From the IMG/VR virus record IMGVR_UViG_3300028833_000144, positions 10,008 to 74,007 of that record: a stretch of 64,000 nucleotides of DNA, one strand, 5' to 3'. This document shows positions 34,108 through 64,000 of this stretch, piece by piece (the stretch's first letter is position 1; each line of letters starts with the position of its first letter). This DNA is from a virus. Its lineage: Duplodnaviria; Caudoviricetes. The notes beneath the pieces were generated by a model, which worked only from the letters and a program-made list of their open reading frames with translations, was not told where the DNA came from and did no database searches. The translations under genes and the position numbers were made by a program.

Positions 34108-35037
34108 TTATAGGTATTTTTCAACATCTCCGATAATGCCTGTTTCTTCATCTCCAAAGTGTTTCTTACATACTGCTATGCAGAACTCTTCAATTTCGCT
34201 ACTCCACACAGGCTCACAACCACTTCTCTTAAAGACTAAACAGAAGCCGGATATGCCGTCAAAAAGGCTACCCATAGTAGGATTCTCTACCCCGTCTGCT
34301 TTAAGCTGCTTAACCATTCGATCAGCAAGAAATTGCCAATAAGGAAGTGCTATTGAATTACCTAAAGCCTTATATTTTGGTGCATCTGCTTCTTTGTGTT
34401 TCTTTCCGTTTTCGTCAACCCATTCTCCTATATCAACCCAAGTTTCTTCGTGTATTATTTGTTGAACTCTACTGTCACTTATCCCAAACATTTCTGACAA
34501 GTCTTTACAAGTAAAGTCTGTATTTTTATATATTAATTGAATTAAGTCGTGTTCTTCGTTACTTAATTTAGCCTGACCTGCATCTTCTTTAATTTTATAT
34601 AATCCATCTTTTCTTGCTTTTAAAGAATTTTGAGCAGATGTTAATAATTGAAGATTACATAAACGATTATCAGTTTTGTCATTGTTTATATGATCTATAA
34701 CATAACCATTTGGCAATACTCCATTAGCAGAAATCCAAATTATTCTGTGAACTCTACATTGAACTTTAGTATCTCCATTTCTTATATTAACAACTAAATA
34801 TCCTTTAAGATTACTTCCTTTTAATTCTTTTGGATTATCTAACTTAATTCCCCCAGGACCACGAGTAGCATAAACTTTTCCTGTGTTTACATCTGCTATA
34901 ATATTTCCTTCATATAAATTCCAAGCGATATATTCATCTTTTGTCATTTCTGAAAATTTTACCGTTCTAACATTAGGAAAACCCTGCAATCTACAACATT
35001 CCGTGGGCGTTAATCTTCTTACAACTGCATTAGGCAT
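34108..35037 (-). CDS. C5-MTase fragment: motif IX - in-frame HNH - motif X - motifs I-II
   Basis: RRLTPTECCRLQGFP; RVHRII..IDHINNDKTDNRLCNL; YKALGNSIA; GSLFDGISGF; SEIEEF. Confidence 0.88.
   Translation of the reverse strand: MPNAVVRRLTPTECCRLQGFPNVRTVKFSEMTKDEYIAWNLYEGNIIADVNTGKVYATRGPGGIKLDNPKELKGSNLKGYLVVNIRNGDTKVQCRVHRIIWISANGVLPNGYVIDHINNDKTDNRLCNLQLLTSAQNSLKARKDGLYKIKEDAGQAKLSNEEHDLIQLIYKNTDFTCKDLSEMFGISDSRVQQIIHEETWVDIGEWVDENGKKHKEADAPKYKALGNSIALPYWQFLADRMVKQLKADGVENPTMGSLFDGISGFCLVFKRSGCEPVWSSEIEEFCIAVCKKHFGDEETGIIGDVEKYL
34444..34974 (-). mobile_element. HNH homing-endonuclease domain inserted in frame in the MTase fragment
   Basis: 177 codons between QGFP and TWVDIGEW; HNH_3 motif plus C-terminal HTH; no intein termini. 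Confidence 0.75.
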
Positions 35038-35538
35038 TTTTTCTTCTCCTTTATTAATAACATAGGGTGTGCAATTCCCCCCGTTCCGTACCTGGCTCTA
35101 ACAGTTTCACACACATTATCAAACTGCTTATATCCATGATGTACGGAAGAATCATAAACACATTGAGCGTCTTTATAATCTCTGCTTCTCAAACTAAACG
35201 CTACCCCCCGTATCAATTTTAGGTGTCATTTCTGTTGTCAGACATATTTCTTCGTTCATTTCTTACCTCTCTATTATCCAAGATATATATTTCTCCCCCC
35301 CGTATCTGCTTTCTCCTGCATATAAAGAATTACAAATACCATTAATATCGAGGATAGTTTTACTTTGAAAATCATTTTTATTAAGATTTATCACCTTGTT
35401 CATCTTCTACCTCTTCAACAATTAAAACTAAAGGTATATGGTCACTATCAGTAGCAATATTAGTTAATGCTTTCGTTACCCCCCTGTTACAGTTTGGTTA
35501 TAAGCATCTATTCCTATTACTACCTTTTCTTCTTTCAT
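35019..35538 (-). CDS. Frame-broken C5-MTase target-recognition micro-cassettes (35476-35538, 35263-35403, 35194-35259, 35019-35216)
   Basis: Three start at ATGs (two with GAGGT RBS, one ATGA-coupled); TRD-like repeats continue in another frame at G6/G7 tracts. Confidence 0.6.
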
Positions 35539-35942
35539 TTGCTCTCCCACTTTTCACAAGTATCGCATCTGTGCATATAGCACCCTTTTTCAAATTTGCA
35601 ATTACCATATCTACCCTCTTTGTGCTTATTAGAAACAGTCCAATTCTTACAATCTTGACAATACTTATGTGCTATTCCAAAAGACTGTAAGACTTCTGTT
35701 TTAATTTCATCAAGATAACCCTCTATTCTCTTCTGTCGACCTATTTCTGTAAACCACTTTTCCTTGAACTTATCTCTTGCTTCGTTCCAATTACCTTCTC
35801 CTGTATCTCCCGAAAGATACCACTCTCTGTCATGGAATAATTGAGCAAGGTCTTTTACAAGGTCATCAAGCTCTCTATCTTTAAAATCTCCAACGTGTTC
35901 TTCTAATCTATTATAGAAATAATCTAAACTTCCACCACTCAT
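35535..35942 (-). CDS. Unrelated hypothetical protein interrupting the MTase locus
   Basis: MSGGSLDYFY..., Cys-rich tail; coupled at both ends. Confidence 0.65.
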   Translation of the reverse strand: MSGGSLDYFYNRLEEHVGDFKDRELDDLVKDLAQLFHDREWYLSGDTGEGNWNEARDKFKEKWFTEIGRQKRIEGYLDEIKTEVLQSFGIAHKYCQDCKNWTVSNKHKEGRYGNCKFEKGCYMHRCDTCEKWESK

Positions 35943-36157
35943 TTTTCTTCGTCCTCCTCTATTATTAAAATAGCCATTTGATCGTGCATACAATTCAATG
36001 TATGACTTACCTCATAACTCATTGTCATAGCTTCCTGTACTTGTCCGTTACCTATGCACCAAGTACCCCCCCGTTTAGTCTTTAAGGGATATGATGATCT
36101 TTCCTTCATCGACATATTGATTTCCAACCCCTTTATAATCTCTTGCACATAAAGCAC
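35939..36157 (-). CDS. MTase TRD-like fragment (CIGNGQ...HTLNCMHDQ)
   Basis: Same frame as the catalytic fragment, directly after its TAG. Confidence 0.5.
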   Translation of the reverse strand: MLYVQEIIKGLEINMSMKERSSYPLKTKRGGTWCIGNGQVQEAMTMSYEVSHTLNCMHDQMAILIIEEDEEK

Positions 36158-37381
36158 CTACGGTATCATTACCCCCCCAGGTCCCCTAGCAACTAATGGT
36201 TGTGCTATTTCTTCTTGAATAGAAATATCATACTTTGCGTTTTTGCCTTGATTAAAAGAAGCTCTGTCAATACCAAGCACACAAGGAATATCGTGATTAT
36301 CATTCTTACCATGTAATAAAGCATTGGTTCTATCTTCATTAATAGTAAGATCGTGAGAATTAACAACTAACATTCCACCTTGATTACAGGCAGGATTACC
36401 ACCATTAAGATCAAGTGTTCTTGAAGTATCTGCCTCATAAATACCGCTATTCGGATTATCAGACTTCATAGCATTAGAATCATAAGAGGATATTCCATAA
36501 GCTATAACTTCTCTTTCTATACCCGCTCTTTCTCCGCACCCTTTATAATAAGAAGCGTCAATAGGAGCTGCTATGTCATTCCCGTTTATGTTGCAAGACT
36601 GACTGATTATTGAGGGTTGACAATGTTCCTGTTCGTTCTTCTTGTATGAGGATTCCTTTACCCCCCCATTTTTGCCTGCTCTTTCTTGGAAGGACAAAGC
36701 TCCTTTGCCTGTTTCTCCAATGTCGTCTTGAGCAGTTCCGGTAACTCTTTCTTCCTCGCTTCTGCTCTCCTCAATATTCCTGCACTCGCTTTCGCACTCA
36801 AATTGTAACGAGGGTGCGGATAGTCCTCCAAAATCTGCGACAACCGAGATTCTTCTGCGACGCTGCGGTGTCCCCAACGCAATAACATCTCCTGTATCGC
36901 TATCTCTGATGGTTTTTCCCCAGTATTGAGCGTCATGTGTTCTCCACGATATACTAAAGGGAGTTCCATCATCTCCCACTCCATCAATGCTTCCTGCGTA
37001 GTGCCACCCCTCTTTAGGGATAGGAATAGGGGGGCAGTCCTTGCAGACAACTTTACAGATTTCTTGTAAGACCGCTTGGAAGTCTGCTCCTTTATTTGAG
37101 GAATAGCAGCCAACAACATTTTCGTAGACGGCAAACCGAGGTCGAATATTGATACCTGTCCTTCCATTACTTCTATCATCTTCTCGCATCTCCTTTATGA
37201 TTCTTATTGCTTCAAAAAATAAACCCGATCTTGTTTCTTCGTCATCTTGATTAAGTTTGCTTTTCATTCCGGCTCTCTTTCCTGCTATACTTAAATCCTG
37301 GCAAGGAGCTCCGAAAGTTATAATATTGACTTTAGGTGTTTTTGAGCCATCTATTTTTTGAATATCCCCATAGTGAATCAT
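36158..37381 (-). CDS. C5 cytosine methyltransferase catalytic fragment (motifs III-VIII plus TRD repeats)
   Basis: HYGDI, FGAPCQDLS (catalytic PC), YENV, DAQYWG, PQRRRR; lacks motifs I, II and X. Confidence 0.9.
   Translation of the reverse strand: MIHYGDIQKIDGSKTPKVNIITFGAPCQDLSIAGKRAGMKSKLNQDDEETRSGLFFEAIRIIKEMREDDRSNGRTGINIRPRFAVYENVVGCYSSNKGADFQAVLQEICKVVCKDCPPIPIPKEGWHYAGSIDGVGDDGTPFSISWRTHDAQYWGKTIRDSDTGDVIALGTPQRRRRISVVADFGGLSAPSLQFECESECRNIEESRSEEERVTGTAQDDIGETGKGALSFQERAGKNGGVKESSYKKNEQEHCQPSIISQSCNINGNDIAAPIDASYYKGCGERAGIEREVIAYGISSYDSNAMKSDNPNSGIYEADTSRTLDLNGGNPACNQGGMLVVNSHDLTINEDRTNALLHGKNDNHDIPCVLGIDRASFNQGKNAKYDISIQEEIAQPLVARGPGGVMIP
36658..37179 (-). CDS. Overprinted EcoHK31I-beta-like MTase small subunit
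   Basis: Alternative frame fully inside the catalytic gene; LSQILE..YNLSAKASAGILRRAEARKKELP. Confidence 0.75.
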   Translation of the reverse strand: MIEVMEGQVSIFDLGLPSTKMLLAAIPQIKEQTSKRSYKKSVKLSARTAPLFLSLKRGGTTQEALMEWEMMELPLVYRGEHMTLNTGEKPSEIAIQEMLLRWGHRSVAEESRLSQILEDYPHPRYNLSAKASAGILRRAEARKKELPELLKTTLEKQAKELCPSKKEQAKMGG

Positions 37382-37998
37382 CGTGTAATCTCCTTATATT
37401 TCCATTTATAACCACAAGCTGTTTTGCTTTTGTTTGTTAAACACATTCTGATGTTTCGAGTGGAAGTTTTTAATTTTCTTGCAGCTTCACTTATACTTTC
37501 ATACTCTTTAATAAAATTTCCATCATTATCGAATTGATAAACAGGGTGCATAAATCTTATGTGCGATATACGATTTTTCTCTTTTTCTTCTTCCGTTCTT
37601 TTCTTTCTATAATTGCCATTATTTATTCCACTATGTTTGCCTTTTTGAGATATTCTCATTTTATTTTTTGTTGCTTCATTATGCTTTAATCCCTTCCAAA
37701 CGCAAATTCCCCCTTTAGATATATTGTAACCAACATTAGGATCGGTAGAATTGAATTGTGCTATATACTTAATCTCCGCAGCATCAGCTTCGTCTTTTGT
37801 TAAGTTATCTTCGAGTATTTCTGATTTTAGAAATTTTTTATCAATAAAAGACATAGCATCTTTCATTCGTTGATTATGTTGATAACCTGATTCAATTCTT
37901 TTTTGAATGGTATGTTTTGTCATACCTATATAAATCATTCCGTCCGGAAATGTATGCTTATATACTTTATAGATACGTTCTTCCATACCCAACCTCAT
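37378..37998 (-). CDS. GIY-YIG homing endonuclease with NUMOD3/NUMOD1-type DNA-binding tail
   Basis: YKVYKHTF..IYIGMT, GYNISKGG, KHNEATKNKMR, VYQFD..FIKEYESISEAAR. Confidence 0.85.
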   Translation of the reverse strand: MRLGMEERIYKVYKHTFPDGMIYIGMTKHTIQKRIESGYQHNQRMKDAMSFIDKKFLKSEILEDNLTKDEADAAEIKYIAQFNSTDPNVGYNISKGGICVWKGLKHNEATKNKMRISQKGKHSGINNGNYRKKRTEEEKEKNRISHIRFMHPVYQFDNDGNFIKEYESISEAARKLKTSTRNIRMCLTNKSKTACGYKWKYKEITR

Positions 37999-41713: not shown

Positions 41714-41735
41714 AACGCCCCCCTTTTTATGTTAA

Positions 41736-47777: not shown

Positions 47778-49391
47778 TTACCTATAAGAAACGGAAGCCC
47801 CGACGTCCCCGTACGCAGAAGACGCAGTGTTGCTCAGAAAAAGATAGAACGCACCGCAAGAAGCCGCATCGTTGTAGCAAGCACCGCCGCGAACCGCGTA
47901 TCTTTTACCTGTTGTCGTGACATAGAAGTAGTCTTTATATCTTGTCGAAGATGAAGAACTTATTTCCTTATCATAGAATGAGCCGTCCTCATTGAAGTAC
48001 ATCTTCTGAACAAAGTTCTGTGCGGGTGCGGTATCATTCTGCGTAAGGTAATTCGTTCCTTCTGTGTTATAGTCAGAAGCCGCAGAGCCGTCAGCCGTAC
48101 TCTTTGTCAACTTATATTTCCACACATTATCATCGAGAATAAGTCCACAGAAGCGTCTCATCTGGTTAGACCATTGATTCTCCATGCCGAACACTTTCAC
48201 ACCGTAGTCATTCGTGTTGCTACCCCAGAACATACCCTTTGTGTCCATAGTGCCTGTACCAAGCATAGATGAAACGGCTGAAGTCTGCCTGCACCTACCG
48301 TTACCAAACTTACCGCTTGTGTCGAGCGACTTACTTATGAGAATAAGTAAGTAAGACATGACGATGTAATCACAGTAGACTTCCGTGTCCCAACCGCTAC
48401 CATTCCTCTGTGCCATTGTTCTTTCAACTGTTACGGTCTTACTCTGGCACAAGTCCTTATAGGTCTTGCCACTCAATGAACGGAGAACATCATTCGTTCC
48501 GTCATTGACGATAGAGCCGTTGTAAATCGGTGTGTAGAAATGTTCCACAGCATTTCCGTTATCATCGAGATTAGACCATGCGTGATACTGTCCGTCAAGT
48601 TTCCTATCAGAGATATAAACCGAAACAGAAGCGTCATCGTTAGCGTCAGGAACTACCTTATACCATATCTTACCCCACTCCATCATGGCGTTTCCGTCAT
48701 AAGCGTCATTCGCTATATCAGAAGCCGTGCCGTCCTCTTTCTTTGAGTAATCGTTCTTATCGAGGTAGTAATCAACTGTTCCGTCAGATTTCAGCATACA
48801 AGGGCGAGGCATGAAGAAAGCATTTTCCCAAGAGCCGTAAACAAACTTGTCATTAGTGTAGTCCATGTAAGCAGGTGTCATGCCTACTGCGTCCTCAAGG
48901 TAGGTAACTGCGTCATCTGCGTCCGTCTCGGCACTATCAATATGGAACCCGTAGCATATCTTCTTTCCGTCCACCTGATAGAGAGTGTCGCCTATCTTGA
49001 GAGTAGAGAGCGAGGCGGCGGGCGTGCCGTCAGCGTTACCTTCAACGTGTCCACTTATCTTATCGCTTGACCAAGTAAGAGCCGTACTTATAACACTATC
49101 ATCAATAACAGAAGGCTCGTTAGCCGAAGGCACAAGCACCCAAGACGAGCCGTCAGAAACAAAAGTATCTCCCGCTTTTGCCGTCTGCCCCGCATATGTG
49201 CCGTCTGTTATGACGATATACACAAAACCTTCGTTAGAACTTGAAGCTGTAGGTAGAGTTGTTATCGTTCCGCCTGTGCCAAGAGTTCCCTTAAAAATCA
49301 TAGGCAAGGGAAGTGCGTCTATGCGTTCATTGGCAACTTTGGCTCTCTTTAATGCGGCAACGGCAAGTGCAAATGTTGTATCGTTATCCAT
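47778..49391 (-). CDS. Tail fibre / receptor-binding protein with CLec (DGR-target-like) C-terminus
   Basis: FGMENQWSNQ, AVRGGACYN..CGAFYLFLSNTASSAYGDVGASVSY. Confidence 0.75.
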   Translation of the reverse strand: MDNDTTFALAVAALKRAKVANERIDALPLPMIFKGTLGTGGTITTLPTASSSNEGFVYIVITDGTYAGQTAKAGDTFVSDGSSWVLVPSANEPSVIDDSVISTALTWSSDKISGHVEGNADGTPAASLSTLKIGDTLYQVDGKKICYGFHIDSAETDADDAVTYLEDAVGMTPAYMDYTNDKFVYGSWENAFFMPRPCMLKSDGTVDYYLDKNDYSKKEDGTASDIANDAYDGNAMMEWGKIWYKVVPDANDDASVSVYISDRKLDGQYHAWSNLDDNGNAVEHFYTPIYNGSIVNDGTNDVLRSLSGKTYKDLCQSKTVTVERTMAQRNGSGWDTEVYCDYIVMSYLLILISKSLDTSGKFGNGRCRQTSAVSSMLGTGTMDTKGMFWGSNTNDYGVKVFGMENQWSNQMRRFCGLILDDNVWKYKLTKSTADGSAASDYNTEGTNYLTQNDTAPAQNFVQKMYFNEDGSFYDKEISSSSSTRYKDYFYVTTTGKRYAVRGGACYNDAASCGAFYLFLSNTASSAYGDVGASVSYR

Positions 49392-49402
49392 ACCCTACCT
49401 CC

Positions 49403-49603
49403 TTATAACCAATGCCATGTTCCATCTGAGTCACAAATGCCGACATCGCCATCAACAGTTACGGCTGTGGAGCCAAATCCCAGTTCATAATCTCCCACTG
49501 TCAGCTCGTCCGTGACTTCCACCTTTGTGTCAGCGACAACAGTCGCGATCACTTTTCCACTCTCTGCGTTTCTCTGCTGGATTCCTACCATTCTAACTGC
49601 CAT
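49403..49603 (-). CDS. Small tail-associated protein
   Basis: FGSTAVTVDGDV..DSDGTW family motif. Confidence 0.55.
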   Translation of the reverse strand: MAVRMVGIQQRNAESGKVIATVVADTKVEVTDELTVGDYELGFGSTAVTVDGDVGICDSDGTWHWL

Positions 49604-49625
49604 TTTCTTGATCTCCTTTGTATTT

Positions 49626-51060
49626 TTAATTTTCTGTTATTTCATAGATTAAGGTCATTGTGTGGTTCAGGTTCTTATCAACGAAATCCACACTGTTCAA
49701 GTTATATACTGTTGATACCCATGGGAAGAACGCATCCAGTGAGCAGGTCCAGTTCGCAGCTGCGGGCCTGTTGGAGTCCATCTTCATGATATTCGTTCCA
49801 TACAGATCACCACTGTGGATGCCCTGAAGCAGATTGCCCTGCACGTGGTAATCGTTCAGATTCGTTCTGTACCACTTATCGTTGTGCCAGTAGAGTGCCG
49901 ACGTGCCGTTCCTCAGCGCCTTGTAGCGGTCTCCGTTTGGAAGACCTATCCATACTCCGTTCTTATCTGAAGCGATCGGATCGTCACAAACTTCAGTCCA
50001 TGACGAATCTGAAAGACCACACTGAACGACTTTCAACACGGAATTGACTTCTGCGACTGCATACAGATATGGAACTCCGTTATCGTATTCGATCCACATT
50101 CCGTCCTTAACATTCGTGGTAAAATCGACCAGGCTTCCCGCCCAGGTCGGGAATGTCAGCCCGGTGTAAGTCCTCGAATAAGTCGTGACCAGTGTGAAGT
50201 CTGATGGATCAATCACATAGTCAACAAGCTGATTGGATCCAACATTCACGAAGATATAGTGAAGCAGATTCCCGACATACACGACTGTCGTGTTCTCGAA
50301 AATGTGTCTTTCTGACATAGCATAAGGAATGCCACTCTCCATGCTGATGATGTGAGTGCTTCCGATCTGCTCCCGGATATCGAGGGAAGCACCGGTCAGA
50401 TGCAGGATCTTCGTGTTGAGTGCATACTCTTCAATCTTGATCTCACCCTCTGTCGTGTCCCCTTCATACCAAACCTTATAACCAATCTCGCGCTCGTAGT
50501 CGATGACGGTCAGCTTCATGAGGTCATTTGACATCGCGACAGTTCCGTTTGAAAGAGACTCGTTCGCGAAAGTCATGGGAAGAGTCGGATCGTCTTCATA
50601 GTCGAGGTTGCCCGCGACCTTGAAGTGTACTTTTGCCAGATTCGGCCTGGTTAAACACACGGACTCGATATGTCCGTTTCCGTGGGTTTCGTTCCATCTC
50701 CACACGAACCTATATCCACCGGTTATCGGACCGGTCATGCCTGAAGAGTTATCAGCTGAACCTCTTCTCAGGTTGTTTCCTGTGTAAGCATCGTTGCCCG
50801 CCGTGGCGACGATCTCCGCATCACCGGCGACCATGCCAAAAGTGTCGCCTGCTGTCGGGTTCGCCTTATCAGTGAGGATGCAGCCACCGAACCAGTTCTG
50901 CGCAACGGGCATCATCTTCGTTCTATCCATAATGCCGTTGAAGTCGCCTCTTGAGATAGCCTGAGCAACAAATGGAGTGATGGTATTATGGCCCTCGATT
51001 CTTTTTATAACGCGGTCTGTTCTCGCGTCGTGCAGTTCAAGTCTAACGTGACCTTTCATT
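49626..51060 (-). CDS. Baseplate/tail-tip protein
   Basis: MKGHVRLEL..IEGHNTIT..ETHGNGHIESVCL; ATG at 51060 after AGGAGG. Confidence 0.55.
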
Positions 51061-51721
51061 CTTGCTCCTCCTCCGAGGTGTCTTTGATCTTTATATAATT
51101 CGCCTTGCCGTCGAATTGATGAAGAGCAACACCGCCGTACCACTCGCCGATTTTTATGTCGTTAATCGGGAAGGAATCCCAATACGAGGTAATATGTTCC
51201 CACTCTCCCTCATGTCCTTCCTCCCATTCTTTAGGGACGCCTTGCGGGATTGTGGTGCATATAGAGTTCCAAAAGCCGTGCTCGTCTTGAGTGAATAAGA
51301 TAAAGCCTCCGTCTTTGTTAAAAGAGACGCGGAGCGGTGTATTTCTCCAATCGCCTTCAAAGCGTCTTGATGCGCCTGAAATCTCCCCGATTGCCCGATG
51401 TTTCTCGTCAGAGTCATCGAAATAAATACGACCGAGAATATACACTATCATTCTGTATTTATTCATCGAGAACTCGACAACACGGGTACATTCGTGTGGC
51501 TCGACGCCTGGTCCTGACATCGTGATAAACCCGAACGCGTTGTCGTTGTCGTAGTTTTCCGCGTCTGTATCGAGGCTGAACTCGACCAAAAAGGAACGCC
51601 CGCGCAAATTGATCGTATCGTATGGATCTTCGCTCGAAAAATCGACATTATACAATTCCATGTCCCACTCTGACGGTGCCGGTGGAAGATTCCTGTTCGG
51701 GTATGCTTTGAAAAAAATCAT
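51056..51721 (-). CDS. Tail-associated hypothetical protein
   Basis: Coupled ORF in the tail operon. Confidence 0.55.
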   Translation of the reverse strand: MIFFKAYPNRNLPPAPSEWDMELYNVDFSSEDPYDTINLRGRSFLVEFSLDTDAENYDNDNAFGFITMSGPGVEPHECTRVVEFSMNKYRMIVYILGRIYFDDSDEKHRAIGEISGASRRFEGDWRNTPLRVSFNKDGGFILFTQDEHGFWNSICTTIPQGVPKEWEEGHEGEWEHITSYWDSFPINDIKIGEWYGGVALHQFDGKANYIKIKDTSEEEQE

Positions 51722-52059
51722 CCTATTATCCTCACTGTTACAACCAGGTCATACGAGAGTTCCGGGAATGTCAGATTGAGGACTCCCGGAACAGCCTGCT
51801 CATTAGTCGGATAAACTCCGCGCGGAACTGTGAAATACTCAATGCAGGAACCGTCTTTGATATGAGGATCTTGGAAGAGGAGCGAAGTCTCACCTGCTTC
51901 CAAGGTCGCCTGCAACTTTGTAATGCACGAACCGACTATATCTTTTGGAGTCGTGCTATATGAACCATATGCACCGTTGACCAAGTTATCCGTCGCAAGC
52001 ATCGAGGTCTCGGAATCGAGTGTCCCACTCGGGAGCTGATTAATCTCCACATTTGCCAT
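51718..52059 (-). CDS. Tail-associated hypothetical protein
   Basis: MANVEINQLP N-terminus typical of fibre-related proteins. Confidence 0.55.
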   Translation of the reverse strand: MANVEINQLPSGTLDSETSMLATDNLVNGAYGSYSTTPKDIVGSCITKLQATLEAGETSLLFQDPHIKDGSCIEYFTVPRGVYPTNEQAVPGVLNLTFPELSYDLVVTVRIIG

Positions 52060-53765
52060 TATTCATTCCCTCCTGATATAACAATATTGTCACCACCTAC
52101 TGTGGCGATTCCGTCACCTGATACAGTCGATAGATAGAAAGTTTCCGTGCTCTGCTCTGTGGTGAGTGTCACACTCTCGGTCAGGTCTGAATTGAAGACA
52201 GGACCGGAAACGAGAGGCGTGTATTCGTCTGTAAGTGAAAGATATCCATCTTCTCCGCCTGTGGAAGCATCCATCTTCTGTCCCATTAACAGGGCATGAA
52301 CATCGCCTGCCGCAATAGTCGCGGAACCTGAGTCGATGGAAGCTGCAACCTTGAATCTGTGAACGACTCCCGGAGCGACATTGACGAGCCAGTAGTCTCC
52401 CTTGAAGAGATGATATCCGTTCTCTCCATAAGTATTGATAGGTTCATACTCGATCAAACCGCCATCATAGTAGTAATGCAGTTTGACCTTCTGCGTGGTT
52501 CCATCAAGAGCTGACAGGATCTTCAGCTCGTGCCACAAGGTTACGGTTGTTTGGTCAGCTGTTGCGAAATAAATCTCATATATCTTCTTTTCTGTATGCG
52601 ATAGCGAGATAGCATCTGCGTTTATAAACGGGTAATAAGTGATCCCTTGCGACTTGCTGTTCTTCGCATTTGAAGCGATCTGCTTCTCTTCTTTGCTCAT
52701 TACGGTTGAAGCTGCCGGATTCTCTCCATAGCCTTCGATGACGGTGCAGTCCATCTTGATCGTGTAAGACATGATGACTCCGATAGAATTTGCACCGATG
52801 CCGCCCGTGAAGCGAATAACATCGCCAAGGTCATAGGCAGGATTCGGAAGAATCGACACAGAGAACGGTGTCGCGTTGAATGGTTCCAGCGAATCAATGA
52901 CAGCCTGTCTCTGTCTATCAAGGTCCGCATCCTCACCGTACTGCAAGAATGGGTTCGTGCCGATCTTCATAGTCAGTCCGCCGCTTCTGGTATTGAAGTA
53001 GAGCGAAATGGTGTCATCGACCATGTTCTGAACTTCGAGATCTGAATAGAAACTCGTGTAATCGGAGAACGAAGTCGAATATCTCAACTTCGCGGGAATC
53101 TCGTCAGTGATGACCGATGTGTCCGGCATCGGCCTGAAGACCAGATATCCGGACCTGTCTATTGTGGCGAAGCATCCAACCGCAGCTGCAAGTTGTGACA
53201 GCATATCGCGGTAAGTCATGATGGACGAGCCTCCGACAAGTGTCAGAGTCTCTGTCCCGTTCGGGAGTGCTTCACATTCTGCCTGTGTCATTTCCAGAGT
53301 CGCGCTGCATTCAGTGCAGATCAGGGAAAGCAAATCGAATAAGCTCCCCGATGTTGTATTGAATTGAGCAGTCTTATCGAACAGGCTCATATTGTCGTAA
53401 GCCACGACTTTGAGTCCTGCATCGCTCCATACTGCCTGTTCTATCGTGAACACTCCAATCGGAATGTATTCGAAGGAACTGTCTTCAAGCTCCACACCGA
53501 ACGAGATCGTGATGGAGAGTCCTCTCCAAGAGCCTCGGATGTTCATAGTGTTGGCGAATGCTTCCGTGAAAGTCAGGTCTAATTCGCCGACATACACGCC
53601 GCCAAGCTCGATCTCTGTTGCGGGGCAAAACTGATTCTTATAGACGAACGAATTGCGAATGATATCGCCATCATCGAAGGACGTGCCTCGGACGGTTCCT
53701 GATATCTTATGCGCCCGCGCGTTACTTGCAATCGCGGTCAAATAGTCGTTCGATACGGAATACAT
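52059..53765 (-). CDS. Tail-associated (Tal/hub-like) protein
   Basis: MYSVSNDYL..IELGGVYVGEL..YIPIGVFTI..AYDNM; follows the Dit-like gene. Confidence 0.7.
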   Translation of the reverse strand: MYSVSNDYLTAIASNARAHKISGTVRGTSFDDGDIIRNSFVYKNQFCPATEIELGGVYVGELDLTFTEAFANTMNIRGSWRGLSITISFGVELEDSSFEYIPIGVFTIEQAVWSDAGLKVVAYDNMSLFDKTAQFNTTSGSLFDLLSLICTECSATLEMTQAECEALPNGTETLTLVGGSSIMTYRDMLSQLAAAVGCFATIDRSGYLVFRPMPDTSVITDEIPAKLRYSTSFSDYTSFYSDLEVQNMVDDTISLYFNTRSGGLTMKIGTNPFLQYGEDADLDRQRQAVIDSLEPFNATPFSVSILPNPAYDLGDVIRFTGGIGANSIGVIMSYTIKMDCTVIEGYGENPAASTVMSKEEKQIASNAKNSKSQGITYYPFINADAISLSHTEKKIYEIYFATADQTTVTLWHELKILSALDGTTQKVKLHYYYDGGLIEYEPINTYGENGYHLFKGDYWLVNVAPGVVHRFKVAASIDSGSATIAAGDVHALLMGQKMDASTGGEDGYLSLTDEYTPLVSGPVFNSDLTESVTLTTEQSTETFYLSTVSGDGIATVGGDNIVISGGNE

Positions 53766-53766
53766 A

Positions 53767-54132
53767 TCAGTCCTCCAAGTCTTCCAGTTTGAAGCTCACT
53801 TTGTAAAATCGAGTCGTCGCAGTCTCAAGAATCAGGTCAGCGGAATAGTTCGTCATGAAGCAGTGCCATGTGACAACAGCGCCACTCGCTTCATTCCATC
53901 GCTTGCAAGTCAGTTTCGAGGCGCGAGAGAGTGCGTCAAGTTTGCCCTTCTCGGTGCCGTCACACTTATAAGCTACGGACAGAGAAGGAATGCCTGTTCT
54001 CACCACTGCTCGAAGAGTTGTTCCTGCTTCTGAAGTCTTCAAAGAATCGACGTTCTTGAAGCTCTCCGAATATTTATCATTCGTTAGATCGAGTGTTATA
54101 TTGTCGAGTTTTAGTGATATTACATTCGCCAT
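53767..54132 (-). CDS. Distal tail (Dit)-like protein (phage B)
   Basis: Directly after the TMP; KTSEAGTTLRAVVR motif. Confidence 0.6.
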   Translation of the reverse strand: MANVISLKLDNITLDLTNDKYSESFKNVDSLKTSEAGTTLRAVVRTGIPSLSVAYKCDGTEKGKLDALSRASKLTCKRWNEASGAVVTWHCFMTNYSADLILETATTRFYKVSFKLEDLED

Positions 54133-54134
54133 GA

Positions 54135-55934
54135 TTAGTTCCCTCTTCTGTATGTCGCGAGCTGGTCAGCTCTGATGAGGATAGTGTCGAGCCTCTCCTG
54201 TCCAATATTGACAGGAATGACGATATTTCCGCCTGTCCCGCTCATATCAGTTATCAGCTCCGGTGCAGCCATAGTCGGGAGTGACAGTGTCCTGTTCAGA
54301 GTCGCCTCGAGCTCAGGACTGCCATCTTCGATTCCTTCAATAAAGGACCTCACGAGTCCTGCACCGCCGTGGACATCCATGTCCGAGAGAGGCCCCTTTT
54401 CGGGAACCGAAAAGTGCAGGTAATCCGATATGCACGAAGCCAAATTGCTCGCTGCGTCGCTTAAATTTCCGAACATCGAGCGGACGCCATCGATCAGGTT
54501 CTGAACCATGTCGATGCCCCACTCAAGCGCGTTGGATGCGAGCTGTGGCCCGAGCTGTCCAAACTCTTCAAGCATGGATGTGATGAGTGTCGGGATCTCG
54601 GCGAGGATGGTCGGTGTTGCCTGGATGAGACCTTCAACGATTCCGAAGAAGAGGTCCTGTGCCGCAGCGATGATCTCATCAAGGTGTTCCATTAATGTCT
54701 CAGTTATCGTGTAGATACACTGAATTACGGCCGGGATAAGTTCAGGAAGTGCGTTGGCAATTCCTTCCGTAACGGCGATGATAATCAAAACTGCCGAATC
54801 GATCACGGTTGGTAAATTTTCAATCAAAAATTCGACCAGCCTGACGATGAGGTCTGCCGCCACAGGTGCCAGCTGAGGAAGGACAGCAATTATCCCTTCA
54901 CAGATGGCGAACAGGACTTCTCCCGCGCCGCTCAGGATGGTCGGTAAATTCGCAATTAAGGCATTTGCCAGAGTTATGATGATCGTTGTCGCGATATTAA
55001 CCAGTGTTGGAAGATAGGTAGAGATCAGGCTCGTGAGCTGAGGGACGATCGTGTCAAACACGGCTCCCATCTGTGTGATATCGCCGTTTGCCGCAAGGAT
55101 GCCCTGCGTAAACTGACCGAGTAAGTCAACACCGCTGGTCCCCATCTCTGTGAGGATCGGGAGCAATATCGTGCCAAGTGCATTCTGTGCAGCCTGCATA
55201 CCTGAATCGAGCTGATGCGTCACATCGTCAAAAGCGCCAAATGCTTCGAGTGTATCTCCATCAAGGATTGCACCCGCTTCCTGCGCTTGCTGTGCGTATT
55301 GTGCCATTCCATCAGATCCAACTGCTATGAGACTGTTCAAGTCTTGAGCTGACCGTCCGAAAATTTGCATGGAAAGTGCATCGCGCTGTGTATAGTCATC
55401 GACCTGACCGAGTGCGTCAATCAACTCCCAGTAAACAGTCTGCGAGTCTCTCAAGTTACCGTCTGAATCAGTGACCGCAACTCCGAGTGCTGCATAAGCA
55501 TCGGCGACGGCTCCTGTGCCGTCTGCTGCACTGTTCATGCTTCGAACATTTCGTGCCATGGAAGAAGTCAAGGTCTCTGTTGAAACATCGACTAACTCTG
55601 CCGCATACATATACGCTTGAAGGTCTTCAGTGGCGATATGAGTATTCGTGCTCATGGTAAGAACTTCATCGGCATACGCACCGCCCTGTGCCGTGAAATT
55701 AGCCAGGGCTGTCGCGCCTTCAGCAAGTCCGCTTGCTATCTGGGAACCGATGGACAGAGCGATGGAACCCGCACCGAGCAAAGCGGAGGAAAACGCATCA
55801 CCAAAGTCCGCACCGCCTGCCGAGCCCTGCGATGAAAAATCAACACCGGATAACTCGGAAGCGATCGTCTCCTGTGCGCCTTCCATTGATGGCACGATCG
55901 TCACATAGGCTCTCGCGAGTTCAATATTCGGCAT
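54135..55934 (-). CDS. Tape measure protein (short, 599 aa)
   Basis: ELARAYVTIVPS (r1t-like start); amphipathic repeats; HFSVPEKGPLS. Confidence 0.85.
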   Translation of the reverse strand: MPNIELARAYVTIVPSMEGAQETIASELSGVDFSSQGSAGGADFGDAFSSALLGAGSIALSIGSQIASGLAEGATALANFTAQGGAYADEVLTMSTNTHIATEDLQAYMYAAELVDVSTETLTSSMARNVRSMNSAADGTGAVADAYAALGVAVTDSDGNLRDSQTVYWELIDALGQVDDYTQRDALSMQIFGRSAQDLNSLIAVGSDGMAQYAQQAQEAGAILDGDTLEAFGAFDDVTHQLDSGMQAAQNALGTILLPILTEMGTSGVDLLGQFTQGILAANGDITQMGAVFDTIVPQLTSLISTYLPTLVNIATTIIITLANALIANLPTILSGAGEVLFAICEGIIAVLPQLAPVAADLIVRLVEFLIENLPTVIDSAVLIIIAVTEGIANALPELIPAVIQCIYTITETLMEHLDEIIAAAQDLFFGIVEGLIQATPTILAEIPTLITSMLEEFGQLGPQLASNALEWGIDMVQNLIDGVRSMFGNLSDAASNLASCISDYLHFSVPEKGPLSDMDVHGGAGLVRSFIEGIEDGSPELEATLNRTLSLPTMAAPELITDMSGTGGNIVIPVNIGQERLDTILIRADQLATYRRGN

Positions 55935-55940
55935 ATCGAA

Positions 55941-56366
55941 TCAGCTCCTTTTCTTGTAGTTCTTTATCCACTCCCGGAGTTCTGACTTCGGGAGAGCACC
56001 TTTGCCGATCTTCTTGGTCTTGGTCTTGCCCTCGCTCCAAGGTCGCGGCATAGGTGTTATCTTTGAGGCTTTCTTGTGGCTGAATCCGGCACACAGGTTC
56101 GCATTGATCTGTGATAAAACATCGAATATATCTGCCAGAAGTGCGTTCGTCCTCAAAGTAGTAGCCCACAGTGCGGTGTCTTCGTGAGTTGATCGCCAAA
56201 GTGCCGAATCAAAGTTATTCGGAAGAGCTTTGACGAACGAAGAGAAAGCTCCCATCGACAGGGAGCTTCCAACTTCGCTTAACTCGATACCGGCTGAGGT
56301 TATCAAGTCATATTCAATCGCCTCTTTGTGTCCATTCACGAACTCGCAGAGGCTTGCGATTCCCCC
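55941..56366 (-). CDS. Tail assembly chaperone, frameshifted second part
   Basis: -1 frame relative to the TAC at GGGGGAA; EAIEYDL..LWRS..LLADIFD. Confidence 0.7.
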   Translation of the reverse strand, partial: GGIASLCEFVNGHKEAIEYDLITSAGIELSEVGSSLSMGAFSSFVKALPNNFDSALWRSTHEDTALWATTLRTNALLADIFDVLSQINANLCAGFSHKKASKITPMPRPWSEGKTKTKKIGKGALPKSELREWIKNYKKRS

Positions 56367-56710
56367 AGGGAGATCCCCTGGAACTTCAGAGCGGCTTCCT
56401 GCCATGCGTTGAATAACGCGATCAGGTCTTCCACCGCCCAATCCTTAAATCCTAATCTCTCAAAGACTTCCTTCGGGATGATTGACTCATATATATCAAT
56501 CAGCTCGTTAAAGACTTTCGAATTTGCTTCGAGTTTCTCTGAATTGCTCCCGTTACCCTTGATGATCTCCGTGAGCTTCGTGATATTCGCGAGCTTGTCA
56601 TATAAGCCCGTCGGCATCGACGCGCCCATAGGGAGCGAGATTACTTCTTCGTCTATCTCCACATTGAAATAAACTTTCTTCTTCTTCTGGAACTTGAAAA
56701 CCTCAGCCAT
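56336..56710 (-). CDS. Tail assembly chaperone
   Basis: Between tail tube and TMP. Confidence 0.7.
   Translation of the reverse strand: MAEVFKFQKKKKVYFNVEIDEEVISLPMGASMPTGLYDKLANITKLTEIIKGNGSNSEKLEANSKVFNELIDIYESIIPKEVFERLGFKDWAVEDLIALFNAWQEAALKFQGISLGESQASASS
56360..56366 (-). other. -1 programmed frameshift site GGGGGAA
   Basis: CTG GGG GAA in the TAC frame, GGG GGA in the downstream frame; same heptamer as the mycobacteriophage L5 TAC site. Confidence 0.7.
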
Positions 56711-56724
56711 TTTTCCGTATCTCC

Positions 56725-57255
56725 TTAAATCGTCTGTCCGTCATCGCAAACGAGTGTCCAGTTGCCCTGGATGGTAACTTCCCACTCGATTGCTTCGTCA
56801 TTCTTGAATGTGACATCGCCAAGCTCACTGATGAGACCATTGGATGTGCCAAGAATCTTCATGTCGTCGCCGTCCTTCATTACGAAAAGGAAAGCAGCAG
56901 CGGCAGGCTTGGCATCCGTGTCGATCGTGAGGAGCTTGCCATGGTCCGCAGTAGCGGCGGTCTCGGTGACAGAACCGAAGATCGCTGTGAGTGCAGCCTT
57001 CGTTGTGTCCATGATCTTAGCTGAAACTGTTGCGGGATCAGCGCCGGGAATAACTCTCTTCGGCTGACCTGCCCAGTTCTTGAGTGTGTCGCTGTCGCGA
57101 GGTGTGAAAGTGATACCATCTGCGTCGATATCACCAACTTCTGTCCATGCTGTCAGATCATCACCCGGATATGTGGGGAGAGCTGTGTTAGCAGGTGCAG
57201 TGTAAAACATACCGGAAGCATAACCGCCTCCGAGCTGAACTTCATTTGAAGCCAT
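56725..57255 (-). CDS. Major tail tube protein
   Basis: FYTAPANTALPT..VGDIDADGIT..ELGDVTF; r1t-like. Confidence 0.8.
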   Translation of the reverse strand: MASNEVQLGGGYASGMFYTAPANTALPTYPGDDLTAWTEVGDIDADGITFTPRDSDTLKNWAGQPKRVIPGADPATVSAKIMDTTKAALTAIFGSVTETAATADHGKLLTIDTDAKPAAAAFLFVMKDGDDMKILGTSNGLISELGDVTFKNDEAIEWEVTIQGNWTLVCDDGQTI

Positions 57256-57260
57256 ATCGT

Positions 57261-57653
57261 TTACCTCCTGTTAATAGTTGTTTTCTCTTGATGTGCTACG
57301 ATTCTTAATCTGGCGGAGCACATAGCCAGGTCAGGCCGAACAGGATCGCTCCCCCATGAGCCTGATGAATTAACTTCGATAAATCGAATCGCTGTTGTTT
57401 GGTCTTTTGCCACTTGTTTCAAAACACCGATCGCGTTTCTCAACTGTTCGTCTGCGTCAGCTGGTTCCTTCGCTCTCGAATCAAGAACGATGTCGAATGT
57501 GTCGATCGTGTTAGCGTCCGTTCCGCCGACTCTCTGAACTTCGAGAGACGGCACGGTGAACTTTGACGGAAGAGGTCGGCAGTAAATAGTGAAGTAGTCA
57601 GATAAAGCCAGTCTGACGATGTTCTCGATATCAATACTTCGTAATATTTCCAT
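57261..57653 (-). CDS. Tail terminator
   Basis: VQRVGG...DPVRPDL motif; position. Confidence 0.7.
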   Translation of the reverse strand: MEILRSIDIENIVRLALSDYFTIYCRPLPSKFTVPSLEVQRVGGTDANTIDTFDIVLDSRAKEPADADEQLRNAIGVLKQVAKDQTTAIRFIEVNSSGSWGSDPVRPDLAMCSARLRIVAHQEKTTINRR

Positions 57654-57654
57654 A

Positions 57655-57903
57655 TCAATACACCGCCTGACTCAATACTTTGTCTTCCGCTTCAGCCTGT
57701 GCGCTTGCCTCGTCTGTGGTTCCTGCGAACGCGATGTAACGAGTCCCCGCCTTGACTGAGTGTGCCTGGAAACTATCAAGACCGCTTGCCGAATTTGCCC
57801 GTTCCGCGATCATGGTCGCCTTTTCAGTGACCAGCTGTTCCACTTCGGGAGAGTTAAGGAGCTGACGGAAGCCGTCTGAATTGAAGACTAATCTCACACT
57901 CAT
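57655..57903 (-). CDS. Neck protein
   Basis: FNSDGFRQLLNSPEV; position. Confidence 0.6.
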   Translation of the reverse strand: MSVRLVFNSDGFRQLLNSPEVEQLVTEKATMIAERANSASGLDSFQAHSVKAGTRYIAFAGTTDEASAQAEAEDKVLSQAVY

Positions 57904-57906
57904 AGA

Positions 57907-58245
57907 TCATCCCTCCCATCTCATCAAGTTGAGCTGGATGTGGGAACAGCGCATCGTGCCTGTCCAGATCCTCGGTTTTCCATTGATCTCGTAGGTGTTA
58001 CCATCGAACTCGATGTGATCTCCGGCTTTAACATCCGAGTCATCAGGGAGATAGGCTGTCCATCCGTCAGATATACCGAGGATGCGCCCATCCTGCGACA
58101 AGGAAGTTGATGCCGGCTGAACAGAACAACCATGAATGTCAAAAGGTTCTTCGGTGTTTTCCCAATCAGGGACCAAAGAACCTCTCACATCCTTATATTT
58201 CGGTCTGATGACCGTTATTGTCTGATTAGCAAAAGAAGGAAGCAT
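57907..58245 (-). CDS. Head-closure protein
   Basis: GCSVQP..DVKAGDHIEFDG.TYEING. Confidence 0.7.
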   Translation of the reverse strand: MLPSFANQTITVIRPKYKDVRGSLVPDWENTEEPFDIHGCSVQPASTSLSQDGRILGISDGWTAYLPDDSDVKAGDHIEFDGNTYEINGKPRIWTGTMRCSHIQLNLMRWEG

Positions 58246-58246
58246 A

Positions 58247-58657
58247 TCAATGACACTCCCTTCTCTCTTTCATTAAACTCAATGCGCTTATCTGCTGTCT
58301 TCTAAGACCAAGTGTCTTCAGATCGGAAGGCCAGAGTTTTATTGAACCACTTGAGTTGGGAAGGCTGAACGACTGCGACACACCGCCCGCCGCTTCACTG
58401 TATGAAGTTGCGGGAAGTTGTGTGCCGGGAGTGTTCAACTCTCTCATAACCACGTCACAAACTACACCCTTCGCCACATCTGACAGGTCGGGATCGGCAG
58501 TGATCATCTGATCGAAGTCTCTTCCGACCTTCTTGGCTTCAACACGAATCAGCGAACTGATGACAGGGATGAGCGCATTTGCTCTGTCCTGCTCCGCTTG
58601 CGTCAGAGGTCTTTTGAGACTCTGTATATCCGCAACAGTTGCATAGTTTGTTCCCAT
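58247..58657 (-). CDS. Head-tail connector (Gp19/Gp15/Gp42-like)
   Basis: NYATVADI..RPLT..EQDRA..S..AGGVSQSF..LKTLGL. Confidence 0.8.
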   Translation of the reverse strand: MGTNYATVADIQSLKRPLTQAEQDRANALIPVISSLIRVEAKKVGRDFDQMITADPDLSDVAKGVVCDVVMRELNTPGTQLPATSYSEAAGGVSQSFSLPNSSGSIKLWPSDLKTLGLRRQQISALSLMKERRECH

Positions 58658-58667
58658 AGTTCACCTC

Positions 58668-58847
58668 TTATTTCTTCGTTGTTCTTCTTCTCTTTTTAGG
58701 CGCTTCGATCACTTCTTCTGTGGGGACTGTGGAAATAGCGGCAGACTTTTCAGCCTTGCCGCCTATCTTCTCCCAGTTCTTTCCGTTTAACTCGGAAGCC
58801 ACATCAATGATCGCGCCCGTGACTTTGTTTCGATAGCGCATGATCAT
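58668..58847 (-). CDS. Small basic protein after MCP
   Basis: YRNKVTGAIIDVASEL.G.NWE; RBS AAGGAG. Confidence 0.65.
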   Translation of the reverse strand: MIMRYRNKVTGAIIDVASELNGKNWEKIGGKAEKSAAISTVPTEEVIEAPKKRRRTTKK

Positions 58848-58855
58848 TCCGCTCC

Positions 58856-59728
58856 TTACTCTTCGATTCTTGCGAATGCTGCACCATCGAGGATAGCCCA
58901 ACCAATCCATGCCTCTGTTCTGAGGTAAACCTGGTTGTAACCCTTGAGGTCCTTGCCGGAGTTGTCAGGATCACCGTACTCGATAACCTCGAGGTTGATG
59001 GACTCTGCATAGCCCCACTTGAATGCGTTCTCAAAGTCACCGCAATATGCGTGCTTACCGGTAACTGCGGAAACTGTGCTGTTTACAGAGGAAGGAACGC
59101 CCTTGATGGACTCAGGCTGTCCGCCCCACTGAAGCTCAGGATACTGAGATACGCCATTGACCTTGAGGCCTGCGAGAGCCTGTGCGAATGTCTTGTCGAT
59201 TGCGATACCGTTGAGGTCGTAATCACCAAGAGCTGCAACTGCTGTCTCGACATTTCCTTCCGGATCAGGTGAGAGCGGGTTGTAAGTAATATCATTTACA
59301 TCTGTGTTCGTGTCGAATGAGTTTGTTCCGATTGCTGTCGCAGCAGAACCAGTTGCGGGATTAACACCATGGAAAGCCATGATATCAAGACCACGAGCGA
59401 CCTTCTTTGCGAAGCCCTCATTGAATGCTCTGAGATACTCGAGCTGCTTCTCCTCGGAGCAACGAACGAACTCATCAGATACTCTCTGGCCATACTCGAT
59501 CTTGAGAGGAACCATTCTGATAACACTGTTTCCGCCTGTGTGCTCACCCTTTGCAGCTCCTTCGGCTACGAGATTGACTTCTCCATCGAGAGAAAAGGTC
59601 ATGATGTCTGTACCGCTGAATGCGATAGGTGTCTGCTTTGCGAGCTTCGCGATGGAAGACTTGCCCTGTGCTGCTACGAATACTTCCCTTACCAACTCAG
59701 AAGGGAAACCTGCTGATGTGAAAGCCAT
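58856..59728 (-). CDS. Major capsid protein (phage B, r1t-like)
   Basis: GKSSIAKLA.QTPI, PLKIEYGQRVSDEF, ARGLDIMAFHG, YNQVYLRTEA.IGW. Confidence 0.9.
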   Translation of the reverse strand: MAFTSAGFPSELVREVFVAAQGKSSIAKLAKQTPIAFSGTDIMTFSLDGEVNLVAEGAAKGEHTGGNSVIRMVPLKIEYGQRVSDEFVRCSEEKQLEYLRAFNEGFAKKVARGLDIMAFHGVNPATGSAATAIGTNSFDTNTDVNDITYNPLSPDPEGNVETAVAALGDYDLNGIAIDKTFAQALAGLKVNGVSQYPELQWGGQPESIKGVPSSVNSTVSAVTGKHAYCGDFENAFKWGYAESINLEVIEYGDPDNSGKDLKGYNQVYLRTEAWIGWAILDGAAFARIEE

Positions 59729-59744
59729 AATTCTTTCTCCTTTA

Positions 59745-60209
59745 TTAATTAGTTTTTATTGCGCCAAGAAGGGACTTCATCGCCGTTTTTGCCGGATCAG
59801 TCGATTCTCCGCTTTCTGTTGATTTTGTCGGTGCGAGAACGGTTCCCGCTCCAACGAGCTTCTTCAAGGACTCCGCGTCAGCTCGGATGGACTCTTCATC
59901 TTCTCCGCTGATTCTGGAAATCCAGTCATAAGACAACCCGACCTCATGAGCGATCCGGCTCTTCAACGATGTCGTCTCGTATGTTTTTACTTTCGCTGTG
60001 AGATCTGCGATCGTCTGCTCATCGTTCTTGTGAGCTTCCTTGTAATCACTAAATGCCTTGTTAGCCTCTTCGATTCCCTTCTGATGGTCTTCCGGAGAGA
60101 TCCATCCTTTGAACCTGTTTTCAGCGGACTCCCGCTCGCGCTTCAGGCGATTCGTGATGATCTTGTCGAGCTCTTCCTGTGTCTCGATGGGCTTGAATTC
60201 TTCTGACAT
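59745..60209 (-). CDS. Capsid scaffolding protein (phage B)
   Basis: FKPIETQEELDKII..RL.GEDEESIRADAE. Confidence 0.8.
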   Translation of the reverse strand: MSEEFKPIETQEELDKIITNRLKRERESAENRFKGWISPEDHQKGIEEANKAFSDYKEAHKNDEQTIADLTAKVKTYETTSLKSRIAHEVGLSYDWISRISGEDEESIRADAESLKKLVGAGTVLAPTKSTESGESTDPAKTAMKSLLGAIKTN

Positions 60210-60255
60210 AATTTTGTCCTTTCCCCGATTTTGTCCGTTCGGTAACGTGAATTTA

Positions 60256-61641: not shown

Positions 61642-61689
61642 CTTTGATCTTTACCTCCTGTGGCTTGTCTCTCGAATGTAATTTCATAG

Positions 61690-63764: not shown

Positions 63765-63961
63765 TATTTCCCACTCCTAATCTTTTTGATGATATCGTCA
63801 GCACTTGGACGGTCTTCTGACACGGACGCACCGGCTGCATCCATTATCTTTTGCATTGTCTGGATTGCTTGTATTCGCACCGCCGGAGAGGTCTCCAAGT
63901 CGTCTCGAATAGCGATCAATGTCTGAATGTTCAATTCAGTTTCTTTGTCGAGCTTAATCAT
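63764..63961 (-). CDS. Small helical protein, possible TerS of phage B
   Basis: GGGAGG RBS before ATG at 63961; upstream of portal. Confidence 0.4.
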   Translation of the reverse strand: MIKLDKETELNIQTLIAIRDDLETSPAVRIQAIQTMQKIMDAAGASVSEDRPSADDIIKKIRSGK

Positions 63962-64000
63962 TGTCTTCCCTCCCGGGGTTTTATAAGGCAATATGTCACA

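Follow-up and report, generated by a model that had tools for sequence, protein, structure and literature searches.

Is a methyltransferase gene that is broken into several reading frames, with runs of guanine at the frame junctions, a switchable enzyme, a decaying one, or a product of faulty assembly? This question is raised by a C5 cytosine DNA methyltransferase (C5-MTase) gene that occupies several open reading frames (ORFs) on the minus strand, from 37381 to 34108, of a 64,000-nucleotide stretch of phage DNA. The stretch (referred to here as the window) comprises bases 10008 to 74007 of the 74,007-bp IMG/VR virus record IMGVR_UViG_3300028833_000144, from an uncultivated member of the Caudoviricetes; short DNA matches point to a phage of gut or rumen Clostridia. 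An initial annotation of the window described poly-G tracts within a series of repeats resembling target recognition domains (TRDs) and proposed a slippage-switched specificity system. The reading that we favor, and that we consider probable from comparison of related sequences, is that the array of this phage C5-MTase contains hypermutable (contingency) tracts at the DNA level, whose lengths would switch the frames of individual recognition modules.

The PF00145 motifs IV (PCQ), VI (ENV), VIII (QxRxR), IX, X (GNS), and I (FxGxG) are all present in the gene. Their order is circularly permuted: motifs III to VIII are followed by the module array, motif IX, motif X, and motifs I-II, and neither Pfam placement nor the ORF list yielded the canonical I-to-X order on one polypeptide. 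ORF-A (alpha; 36158 to 37381, 407 amino acids as assembled), delineated by the ORF list, Pfam, and homologue alignment, matches PF00145 profile positions 46 to 130 with its residues 3 to 108. It contains, in order, motifs III/IV (PCQ), VI (ENV), and VIII (QRRRR), a linker, a first unit in the wrong frame (U1), and units U2 to U5. The C-terminal fragment (34108 to 35037, 309 amino acids), recognized through Pfam and homologues, comprises motif IX, an HNH_3 plus sigma-70 region 4-like insert, motif X (GNS), and motifs I-II; this last ORF closes with DNA_methylase profile positions 3 to 51 (motifs I-II), placed by Pfam at residues 275 to 326. With an ATG and a ribosome-binding site of its own, the fragment can be produced regardless of the state of the upstream tracts. 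Uninterrupted homologues (proteins P0009, P0020, and P0026 and a 632-amino-acid ORF of contig L019) start and end in the identical order; the circular permutation is therefore a family trait. An AlphaFold2 model was obtained for L019, an uninterrupted relative and not the window protein. In this model, a catalytic core is formed from both ends with a predicted local distance difference test (pLDDT) score of ∼90, and the top Foldseek matches of the core are M.HhaI, M.MpeI, and M.HaeIII (probability, 1.00). The insert between motifs IX and X is in frame (34447 to 34974, minus strand; Pfam HNH_3 and Sigma70_r4, the latter a helix-turn-helix), is also found in the related contig L083, and is absent from the related contigs L040, L082, L089, and L090; no intein domains were detected in it.

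Between motifs VIII and IX lie ∼11 short TRD-like units (U1 to U11), as the initial annotation had counted. Each consists of a hydrophobic strand, a Gly-rich turn, a central (T/S/A)-L, and a closing hydrophobic strand; the TRD label is accordingly a putative one, given for motif pattern and position. Seven poly-G tracts fall in this region of the coding (minus) strand, all at Gly-Gly turns. T1 (G7; 36661 to 36667) lies within U1, at the stop codon of a second, overlapping ORF (beta). T2 (G7; 36172 to 36178) is one G short: ORF-A stops four codons past it, and a G8 tract would append U6 (36078 to 36170). T3 (G7; 36066 to 36072) is in frame with ORF-B, which starts at an ATG within the preceding unit U6 (36115), stops at 35939, and encodes U7. 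T4 (G6; 35479 to 35484) is one G short and lies inside mini-ORF C (ATG at 35538; U8), with the frame of the C-terminal half of U8 ending at 35384. T5 (G7; 35295 to 35301), likewise one G short, is inside mini-ORF D (ATG at 35403; U9), and T6 (G6; 35204 to 35209), with one G too many (or two too few), is inside ORF E (ATG at 35259; U10). Finally, T7 (G6; 35077 to 35082) is one G short and sits at the joint of U11 with the C-terminal catalytic fragment. These results bear out the initial annotation with respect to the lengths and coordinates of the seven runs, their placement at Gly-Gly codons, the single extra G needed at five of them (T1, T2, T4, T5, and T7), the opposite shift at T6, and the three micro-ORF start codons. 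Its statement that T3 opens a unit holds insofar as the tract is in frame with the U7 ORF; because the U6 frame has its own stop (36075 to 36077) just ahead of T3, the tract is not a joint between U6 and U7.

The clustering of these tracts is far from random. Seven of the eight plus-strand C runs of at least 6 nucleotides in the window fall within 35077 to 36667, and the same is true for the 74-kb genome. A first-order Markov model trained on the region predicts 0.48 runs (maximum of 4 in 2,000 simulations), and the background rate of the window predicts 0.0255 (Poisson P of ∼1e-15). In addition, GGG accounts for 7% of Gly codons in the other long ORFs of the phage, and none of the 23 Gly-Gly pairs in those ORFs is written GGGGGG. 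The gene thus displays the over-representation of a coding homopolymer, relative to composition, that characterizes simple-sequence repeat (SSR) contingency loci. Two other G or C runs of at least 6 nucleotides occur in the window (41718 to 41723 and 37029 to 37034), with none further in the 74-kb genome; the latter, a C6 run, is in frame inside the methyltransferase gene. The run at 41718 to 41723, the sole other minus-strand G6, is noncoding: it falls in the ribosome-binding region of a SNF2-type helicase-like gene, a few bases before its ATG.

Checking for tracts at the same junctions in related phages, as had been suggested with the initial annotation, revealed orthologous sites in eight related contigs, with lengths deviating in both directions. 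These contigs (L040, L082, L083, L084, L085, L088, L089, and L090, from IMG/VR, ENA, JGI, and Logan assemblies) form an AT-rich clade in which each gene carries 2 to 7 tracts of G6 to G9; most of them lack any run of G6 or longer elsewhere in the 3 to 11 kb fetched. Most homologues, on the other hand, are 31 to 49% identical, have a GC content of 44 to 58%, and contain no G run in the gene. Among the AT-rich relatives, orthologous tracts share the same flanks and the same Gly-Gly turn and differ in length, with frame offsets of −2, −1, 0, and +1. T2, for instance, is G7 in the window, L088, and L089, G6 in L083, G9 in L082, and G8 in L040, L084, and L090, and only the G8 form is in frame. T3 is G8 and out of frame in L040 and L090, and it has been lost in L082. 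The offset at T4 is −1 in the window, L083, and L090, whereas L088 is in frame and L089 is at +1; at T5, L040 shares the −1 offset of the window. At T7, the window is at −1, L082 and L089 are at +1 (both G8), and L090 (G7) and L040 are in frame. Frame-changing length variation between conserved flanks, a second hallmark of SSR contingency loci, is therefore present among these genomes. An exact-flank DNA pattern for T2 had no match in viral contigs, and a degenerate version retrieved only three already known relatives from viral and metagenome collections.

The closest comparison is that of L088 with L090, which are 94% identical over 1,545 nucleotides and separated by seven indels: four single-G changes (one at each of T1 to T4), one 3-nucleotide indel, and two whole-cassette indels (111 and 408 nucleotides). 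Since all four indels that are not multiples of three are single-G changes in T1 to T4, every frame-changing difference between the two genomes is located at a tract. Similarly, the sole 1-nucleotide indel between the window and L084 is at T2.

Selection on the units was assessed by the ratio of nonsynonymous to synonymous substitution rates (dN/dS). In their own frames, the tract-flanking units give dN/dS values of 0.08 to 0.24 against each relative, at proportions of synonymous differences (pS) of up to 0.6; the sole exception to this range is L084, for which just 21 nearly identical codons can be compared. These values are comparable to those of the catalytic part (0.09 to 0.27), and the other two frames of the units give values of at least 1. 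Taken singly, U1, U6, U7, U8, and U11 have own-frame values of 0.35, 0.11, 0.22, 0.28, and 0.02, respectively. The C-terminal half of U1 gives 0.35 in its own frame versus 1.2 to 1.4 in the other frames, and U1 is in the wrong frame in seven of nine assemblies. Internal stops are absent from the units in nine genomes, at pS values of 0.35 to 0.6. Values this low indicate that each unit's own frame has been translated in the course of evolution, even though the units are usually off in the consensus genome. The combination of varying orthologous tract lengths with purifying selection in the units' own frames is, as judged from sequence comparison, the signature of DNA-level slippage switches.

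T1 differs from the other tracts in that it involves the overlapping beta ORF (36658 to 37179, minus strand; 173 codons), which lies in the +1 frame inside alpha and was delineated by its openness in 62 of 62 distinct loci and by dN/dS. In all 62 loci, no stop interrupts the +1 frame between a point upstream of motif VI and one ∼50 codons beyond motif VIII, whereas the +2 frame stays open in just 1 of the 62. The N-terminal part of beta shadows motifs VI to VIII, where the selected frame is that of alpha (dN/dS of 0.27 versus 0.87 for +1). In its C-terminal module (LSQILE...GILRRA...), beta is the selected frame, with a dN/dS of 0.18 over the 40 codons following ADFGG, compared with 1.29 for alpha. 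Beta is thus a second ORF in another frame under its own selection, as in M.EcoHK31I. It does not supply motif IX, which in this gene resides in the C-terminal fragment; beta is instead a post-motif-VIII module. This module is carried by 1,227 representative proteins in a search of 1.8 billion representatives. The beta ORF has no family in Pfam or PHROGs and appears to be unannotated as such in thousands of homologues.

The stop codon of beta lies directly 3′ of T1, and the ATG-GGG-GGG-TAA end reported for this ORF is indeed present. At G7, the state of the window, a long alpha passes through U1 in the wrong frame and a short beta stops. At G8, which is predicted for the window and is the natural state in L090, alpha reads U1 and then stops, and beta extends into U2 to U5. 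Both outcomes are observed among homologues. In P0125, P0148, P0162, and P0236, the beta module is followed, in the same frame, by the unit array and motifs IX-X-I-II, whereas in other homologues alpha, and not beta, runs on into the array. The array is joined to alpha in L088 (G7) and to beta in its sibling L090 (G8), and the near-identical L019 and P0125 likewise differ at the G tract; the proposal that this tract chooses between alpha and beta for the module array is borne out by both pairs. When beta was modeled in complex with the catalytic core, a score of 0.86 was obtained (best control, 0.16), with runs agreeing in at least 80% of contacts and a partner pLDDT of at least 67. Of 80 solved complexes, 58 reach the mark applied, as do 2 of 110 mismatched pairs, counts that hold roughly for the alignments of our own that were used here. 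The model supports a predicted binding of beta to the catalytic core; resemblance to the canonical C5-MTase fold may account for the pass.

Downstream of ORF-A, the array is laid out as a series of short ORFs, each preceded by a Shine-Dalgarno-like GAGG or GGAG located 5 to 10 nucleotides ahead of its ATG (35942, 35538, 35403, 35259, and 35037). Each short ORF has one tract ∼15 to 35 codons in, and its acidic tail codons constitute the next ribosome-binding site. The same layout is found in L040, L088, L089, and L090. A 135-amino-acid, Cys-rich ORF taken from the ORF list (ORF152; 35535 to 35942, minus strand), with its own ribosome-binding site, is nested between U7 and U8; it has no Pfam family and one weak PHROG match. 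A homologue is located at the matching place in L088 and is absent from L090 (the 408-nucleotide indel). In L083, a different Cys-rich ORF occupies this spot.

Given this layout, no set of ideal tract lengths could produce one continuous ORF, because the region contains stops and tract-free frame changes: the return from U1 to U2, the stop before T3, and the mini-ORF boundaries. Restoration of a single ORF by tract lengths alone is thereby ruled out. The first of these breaks involves the C-terminal half of U1 (36597 to 36659, minus strand), a frame island that is +1 relative to the downstream units, has no tract on its 3′ side, and shows the same offset in eight of nine genomes. The assembled state, consisting of ORF-A with U2 to U5 and the C-terminal fragment, may still be active by analogy with split C5-MTases, both natural and artificial, which do complement (PMC5944983 and PMC2836561).

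In the mechanism that we propose, the Gly-Gly turn of several units in the AT-rich lineage would have come to be written as G6 to G9 and so constitute hypermutable SSRs. Replication slippage that adds or removes one G would place the second half of a unit in or out of frame. The gene would tolerate such frameshifts, as its array is cut into short ORFs with their own ribosome-binding sites and ATGs and its essential C-terminal fragment has its own start. T1 would decide which chain, alpha or beta, bears the module array. Through T2, ORF-A would gain U6, and the C-terminal fragment would gain U10 and U11 through T6 and T7, while T3, T4, and T5 would turn the production of free-standing unit peptides on or off. 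Within a phage population, numerous combinations of expressed modules would then coexist, probably corresponding to different sets of protected DNA sites, and so hedge against host restriction systems. We infer that switching is fast and reversible within a population, that the pieces assemble into an active enzyme, and that each unit carries one specificity. A more far-reaching version, which we consider quite unlikely, is that the short ORFs (∼55 to 60 amino acids with an acidic tail) encode free-standing recognition subunits, switched independently, that would dock in trans on an alpha/beta/IX-X-I-II core. Such subunits would be comparable to the S subunits of type I systems and, if real, would allow up to 2^n methylation repertoires from one phage genome.

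Several observations weigh against switching by hypermutable tracts. In the AlphaFold2 model of L019, the module array has a pLDDT of ∼30. Tracts of G6 to G7 are short for a fast switch, and several units in the on state would be free peptides of ∼55 to 60 amino acids, the use of which is not known for any C5-MTase. The remaining observations also favor the first of the rival explanations, namely, that the methyltransferase is no longer needed, that its poly-G runs were the first sites to break, and that the frames seen are neutral debris. Five of the six switchable tracts in the window are off at once, and about one-third of tracts are in frame across the relatives, which equals the expectation under neutral length drift. 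In L082 (4843 to 4935) and L084 (1508 to 1609), the frame is broken at the PCQ motif, outside the G tracts, and L084 contains an IS200/IS605 element (Y1 transposase plus OrfB/TnpB; 2781 to 4282) directly after T2. Lesions of this kind are irreversible, and the stops and frame changes described above are likewise beyond repair by any tract; individual gene copies can therefore be dead. As an account of the locus as a whole, however, decay is unlikely. It does not fit unit dN/dS values of 0.02 to 0.35 and the stop-free frames in nine genomes. Nor does it fit a broken architecture (the U1 island and the mini-ORF boundaries) that is common to genomes only 46 to 60% identical in protein, and it gives no account of G runs arising against codon usage at seven Gly-Gly turns.

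Alternatively, the DNA could be fixed out of frame, with transcriptional slippage or ribosomal frameshifting (possibly by a special tRNA-Gly) mending some of the products. Homopolymers are known to promote polymerase stuttering, and recoding would account for the selection on units that most assemblies show out of frame. Nevertheless, we regard this explanation as highly improbable. The shift required at a single tract varies (−2, −1, 0, or +1) among relatives, such that no site shows the same shift in all of them, as a programmed frameshift would, and no fixed rule can apply. DNA-level length differences are seen directly between near-identical siblings. No tRNA gene was found by ARAGORN in the 64-kb window, which rules out a phage-encoded frameshift-suppressor tRNA within it. 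With a fixed ribosomal or tRNA rule rejected on the grounds that the shift at one tract differs among relatives, DNA-level slippage fits best. Nonspecific RNA stuttering may add to the DNA switch. Of the mechanisms put forward in the initial annotation, DNA-level slippage is thus supported by nonrandom tracts at frame junctions in TRD-like units, by orthologues varying both ways, and by purifying selection on the units, while fixed tRNA-Gly or ribosomal frameshifting is not.

An assembly or sequencing artefact, in which miscalled homopolymer lengths conceal in-frame genomes, is barely plausible: five of the seven window tracts do need exactly one more G, the direction of undercalling, but the offsets of relatives go both ways (including overlong G8 and G9 tracts), the same out-of-frame lengths recur in three independent samples of one relative (L085 to L087), restoring every tract would still not yield one ORF, the forms predicted for other tract lengths are long open frames such as that of L090, and the contig's A8 and A7/T7 runs and in-frame C6 run leave their ORFs intact. 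The intact ORFs around A/T runs of 7 to 8 nucleotides also led us to reject a general homopolymer error in the contig. In all, the bidirectional lengths in relatives, the low dN/dS of the units, and the undisturbed A/T runs make both assembly error and plain decay unlikely, and hypermutable tracts remain the explanation that we prefer.

Phase-variable methyltransferases, phage poly-G tracts, phage contingency loci, and multispecific phage C5-MTases are all known already. The last of these are represented by the Bacillus phage enzymes M.SPRI, M.Phi3TI, M.Rho11sI, and M.H2I. Like the putative recognition units of the window gene, their modules are short, lie in tandem between motifs VIII and IX, and are presumably directed against several host restriction enzymes; these enzymes differ in being single uninterrupted polypeptides of canonical motif order with 3 to 4 TRDs and no repeats. 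For switching by poly-G, the type IIG enzyme of Campylobacter jejuni provides an example of a phasevarion, with an SSR contingency locus in a restriction-modification methyltransferase (PMC4889913). In such systems, as in the window, a G tract inside the methyltransferase coding region sets the frame, is over-represented, and varies between strains. Known phasevarions are bacterial, however, and use one tract to turn a whole enzyme on or off, whereas the window has seven tracts within separate recognition-type modules of a phage enzyme that is a permuted, multipiece C5-MTase. In phages, a recent preprint describes hypermutable poly-G tracts in Fletchervirus receptor-binding genes as well as contingency loci in T2/T4 (bioRxiv 10.1101/2025.10.21.683753, citing Sorensen et al. 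2021). The likeness lies in phage homopolymers that generate frameshift subpopulations for bet hedging, and the difference lies in the genes affected (receptor-binding or others). The same preprint mentions in passing a poly-G tract in a "thymine methylase" of phage BPP-1, with no modular specificity switching.

The closest precedent for beta is M.EcoHK31I, whose beta chain, a required subunit, is encoded within the alpha gene in a different frame (PMC2836561). Both are second polypeptides in an alternative frame within a C5-MTase gene. The beta chain of M.EcoHK31I carries motif IX, whereas that of the window contains what is usually the segment after motif VIII and can be fused by a poly-G tract to the module array and motifs IX-X-I-II. 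Splitting and permutation also have precedents in the natural two-chain enzyme M.AquI and in circularly permuted C5-MTases such as M.BssHII (PMC5944983), which share with the window gene a variable-region split into complementing chains and a noncanonical motif order. The natural permutants known so far begin in the variable region (IX-X-I-VIII), whereas the family described here starts before motif IV and ends with motifs I-II. Our literature search found no description of phage C5-MTase modules gated by separate poly-G tracts.

Mobile elements and other features were observed in and around the gene. A GIY-YIG/NUMOD1 homing-endonuclease-like gene (37378 to 37998, minus strand) adjoins the methyltransferase start with an ATGA overlap, and a NUMOD-type endonuclease-like gene occupies the same place in L082. 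An intein with LAGLIDADG/Hint domains is located at the catalytic Cys of motif IV in L040 (4302 to 5100) and in protein P0007. The G+C content rises from ∼35 to 40% to ∼49 to 51% over the last 16 kb of the window (about 48000 to 64000), which suggests that this segment is a module of different origin.

In practical terms, genes of this kind are fragmented by gene callers, and the system could yield small, portable DNA-recognition modules. What appears to be new in this phage is that a permuted, split, and dual-coded enzyme contains many recognition modules, each associated with a slippery tract of its own. In this respect, the phage seems to combine the single on/off switching known from bacteria with the fixed multispecific enzymes of Bacillus phages. 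If the switches work as proposed, a single phage lineage would have an inherent means of diversifying its methylation to counter host restriction systems, with a bearing on phage host range in gut communities.

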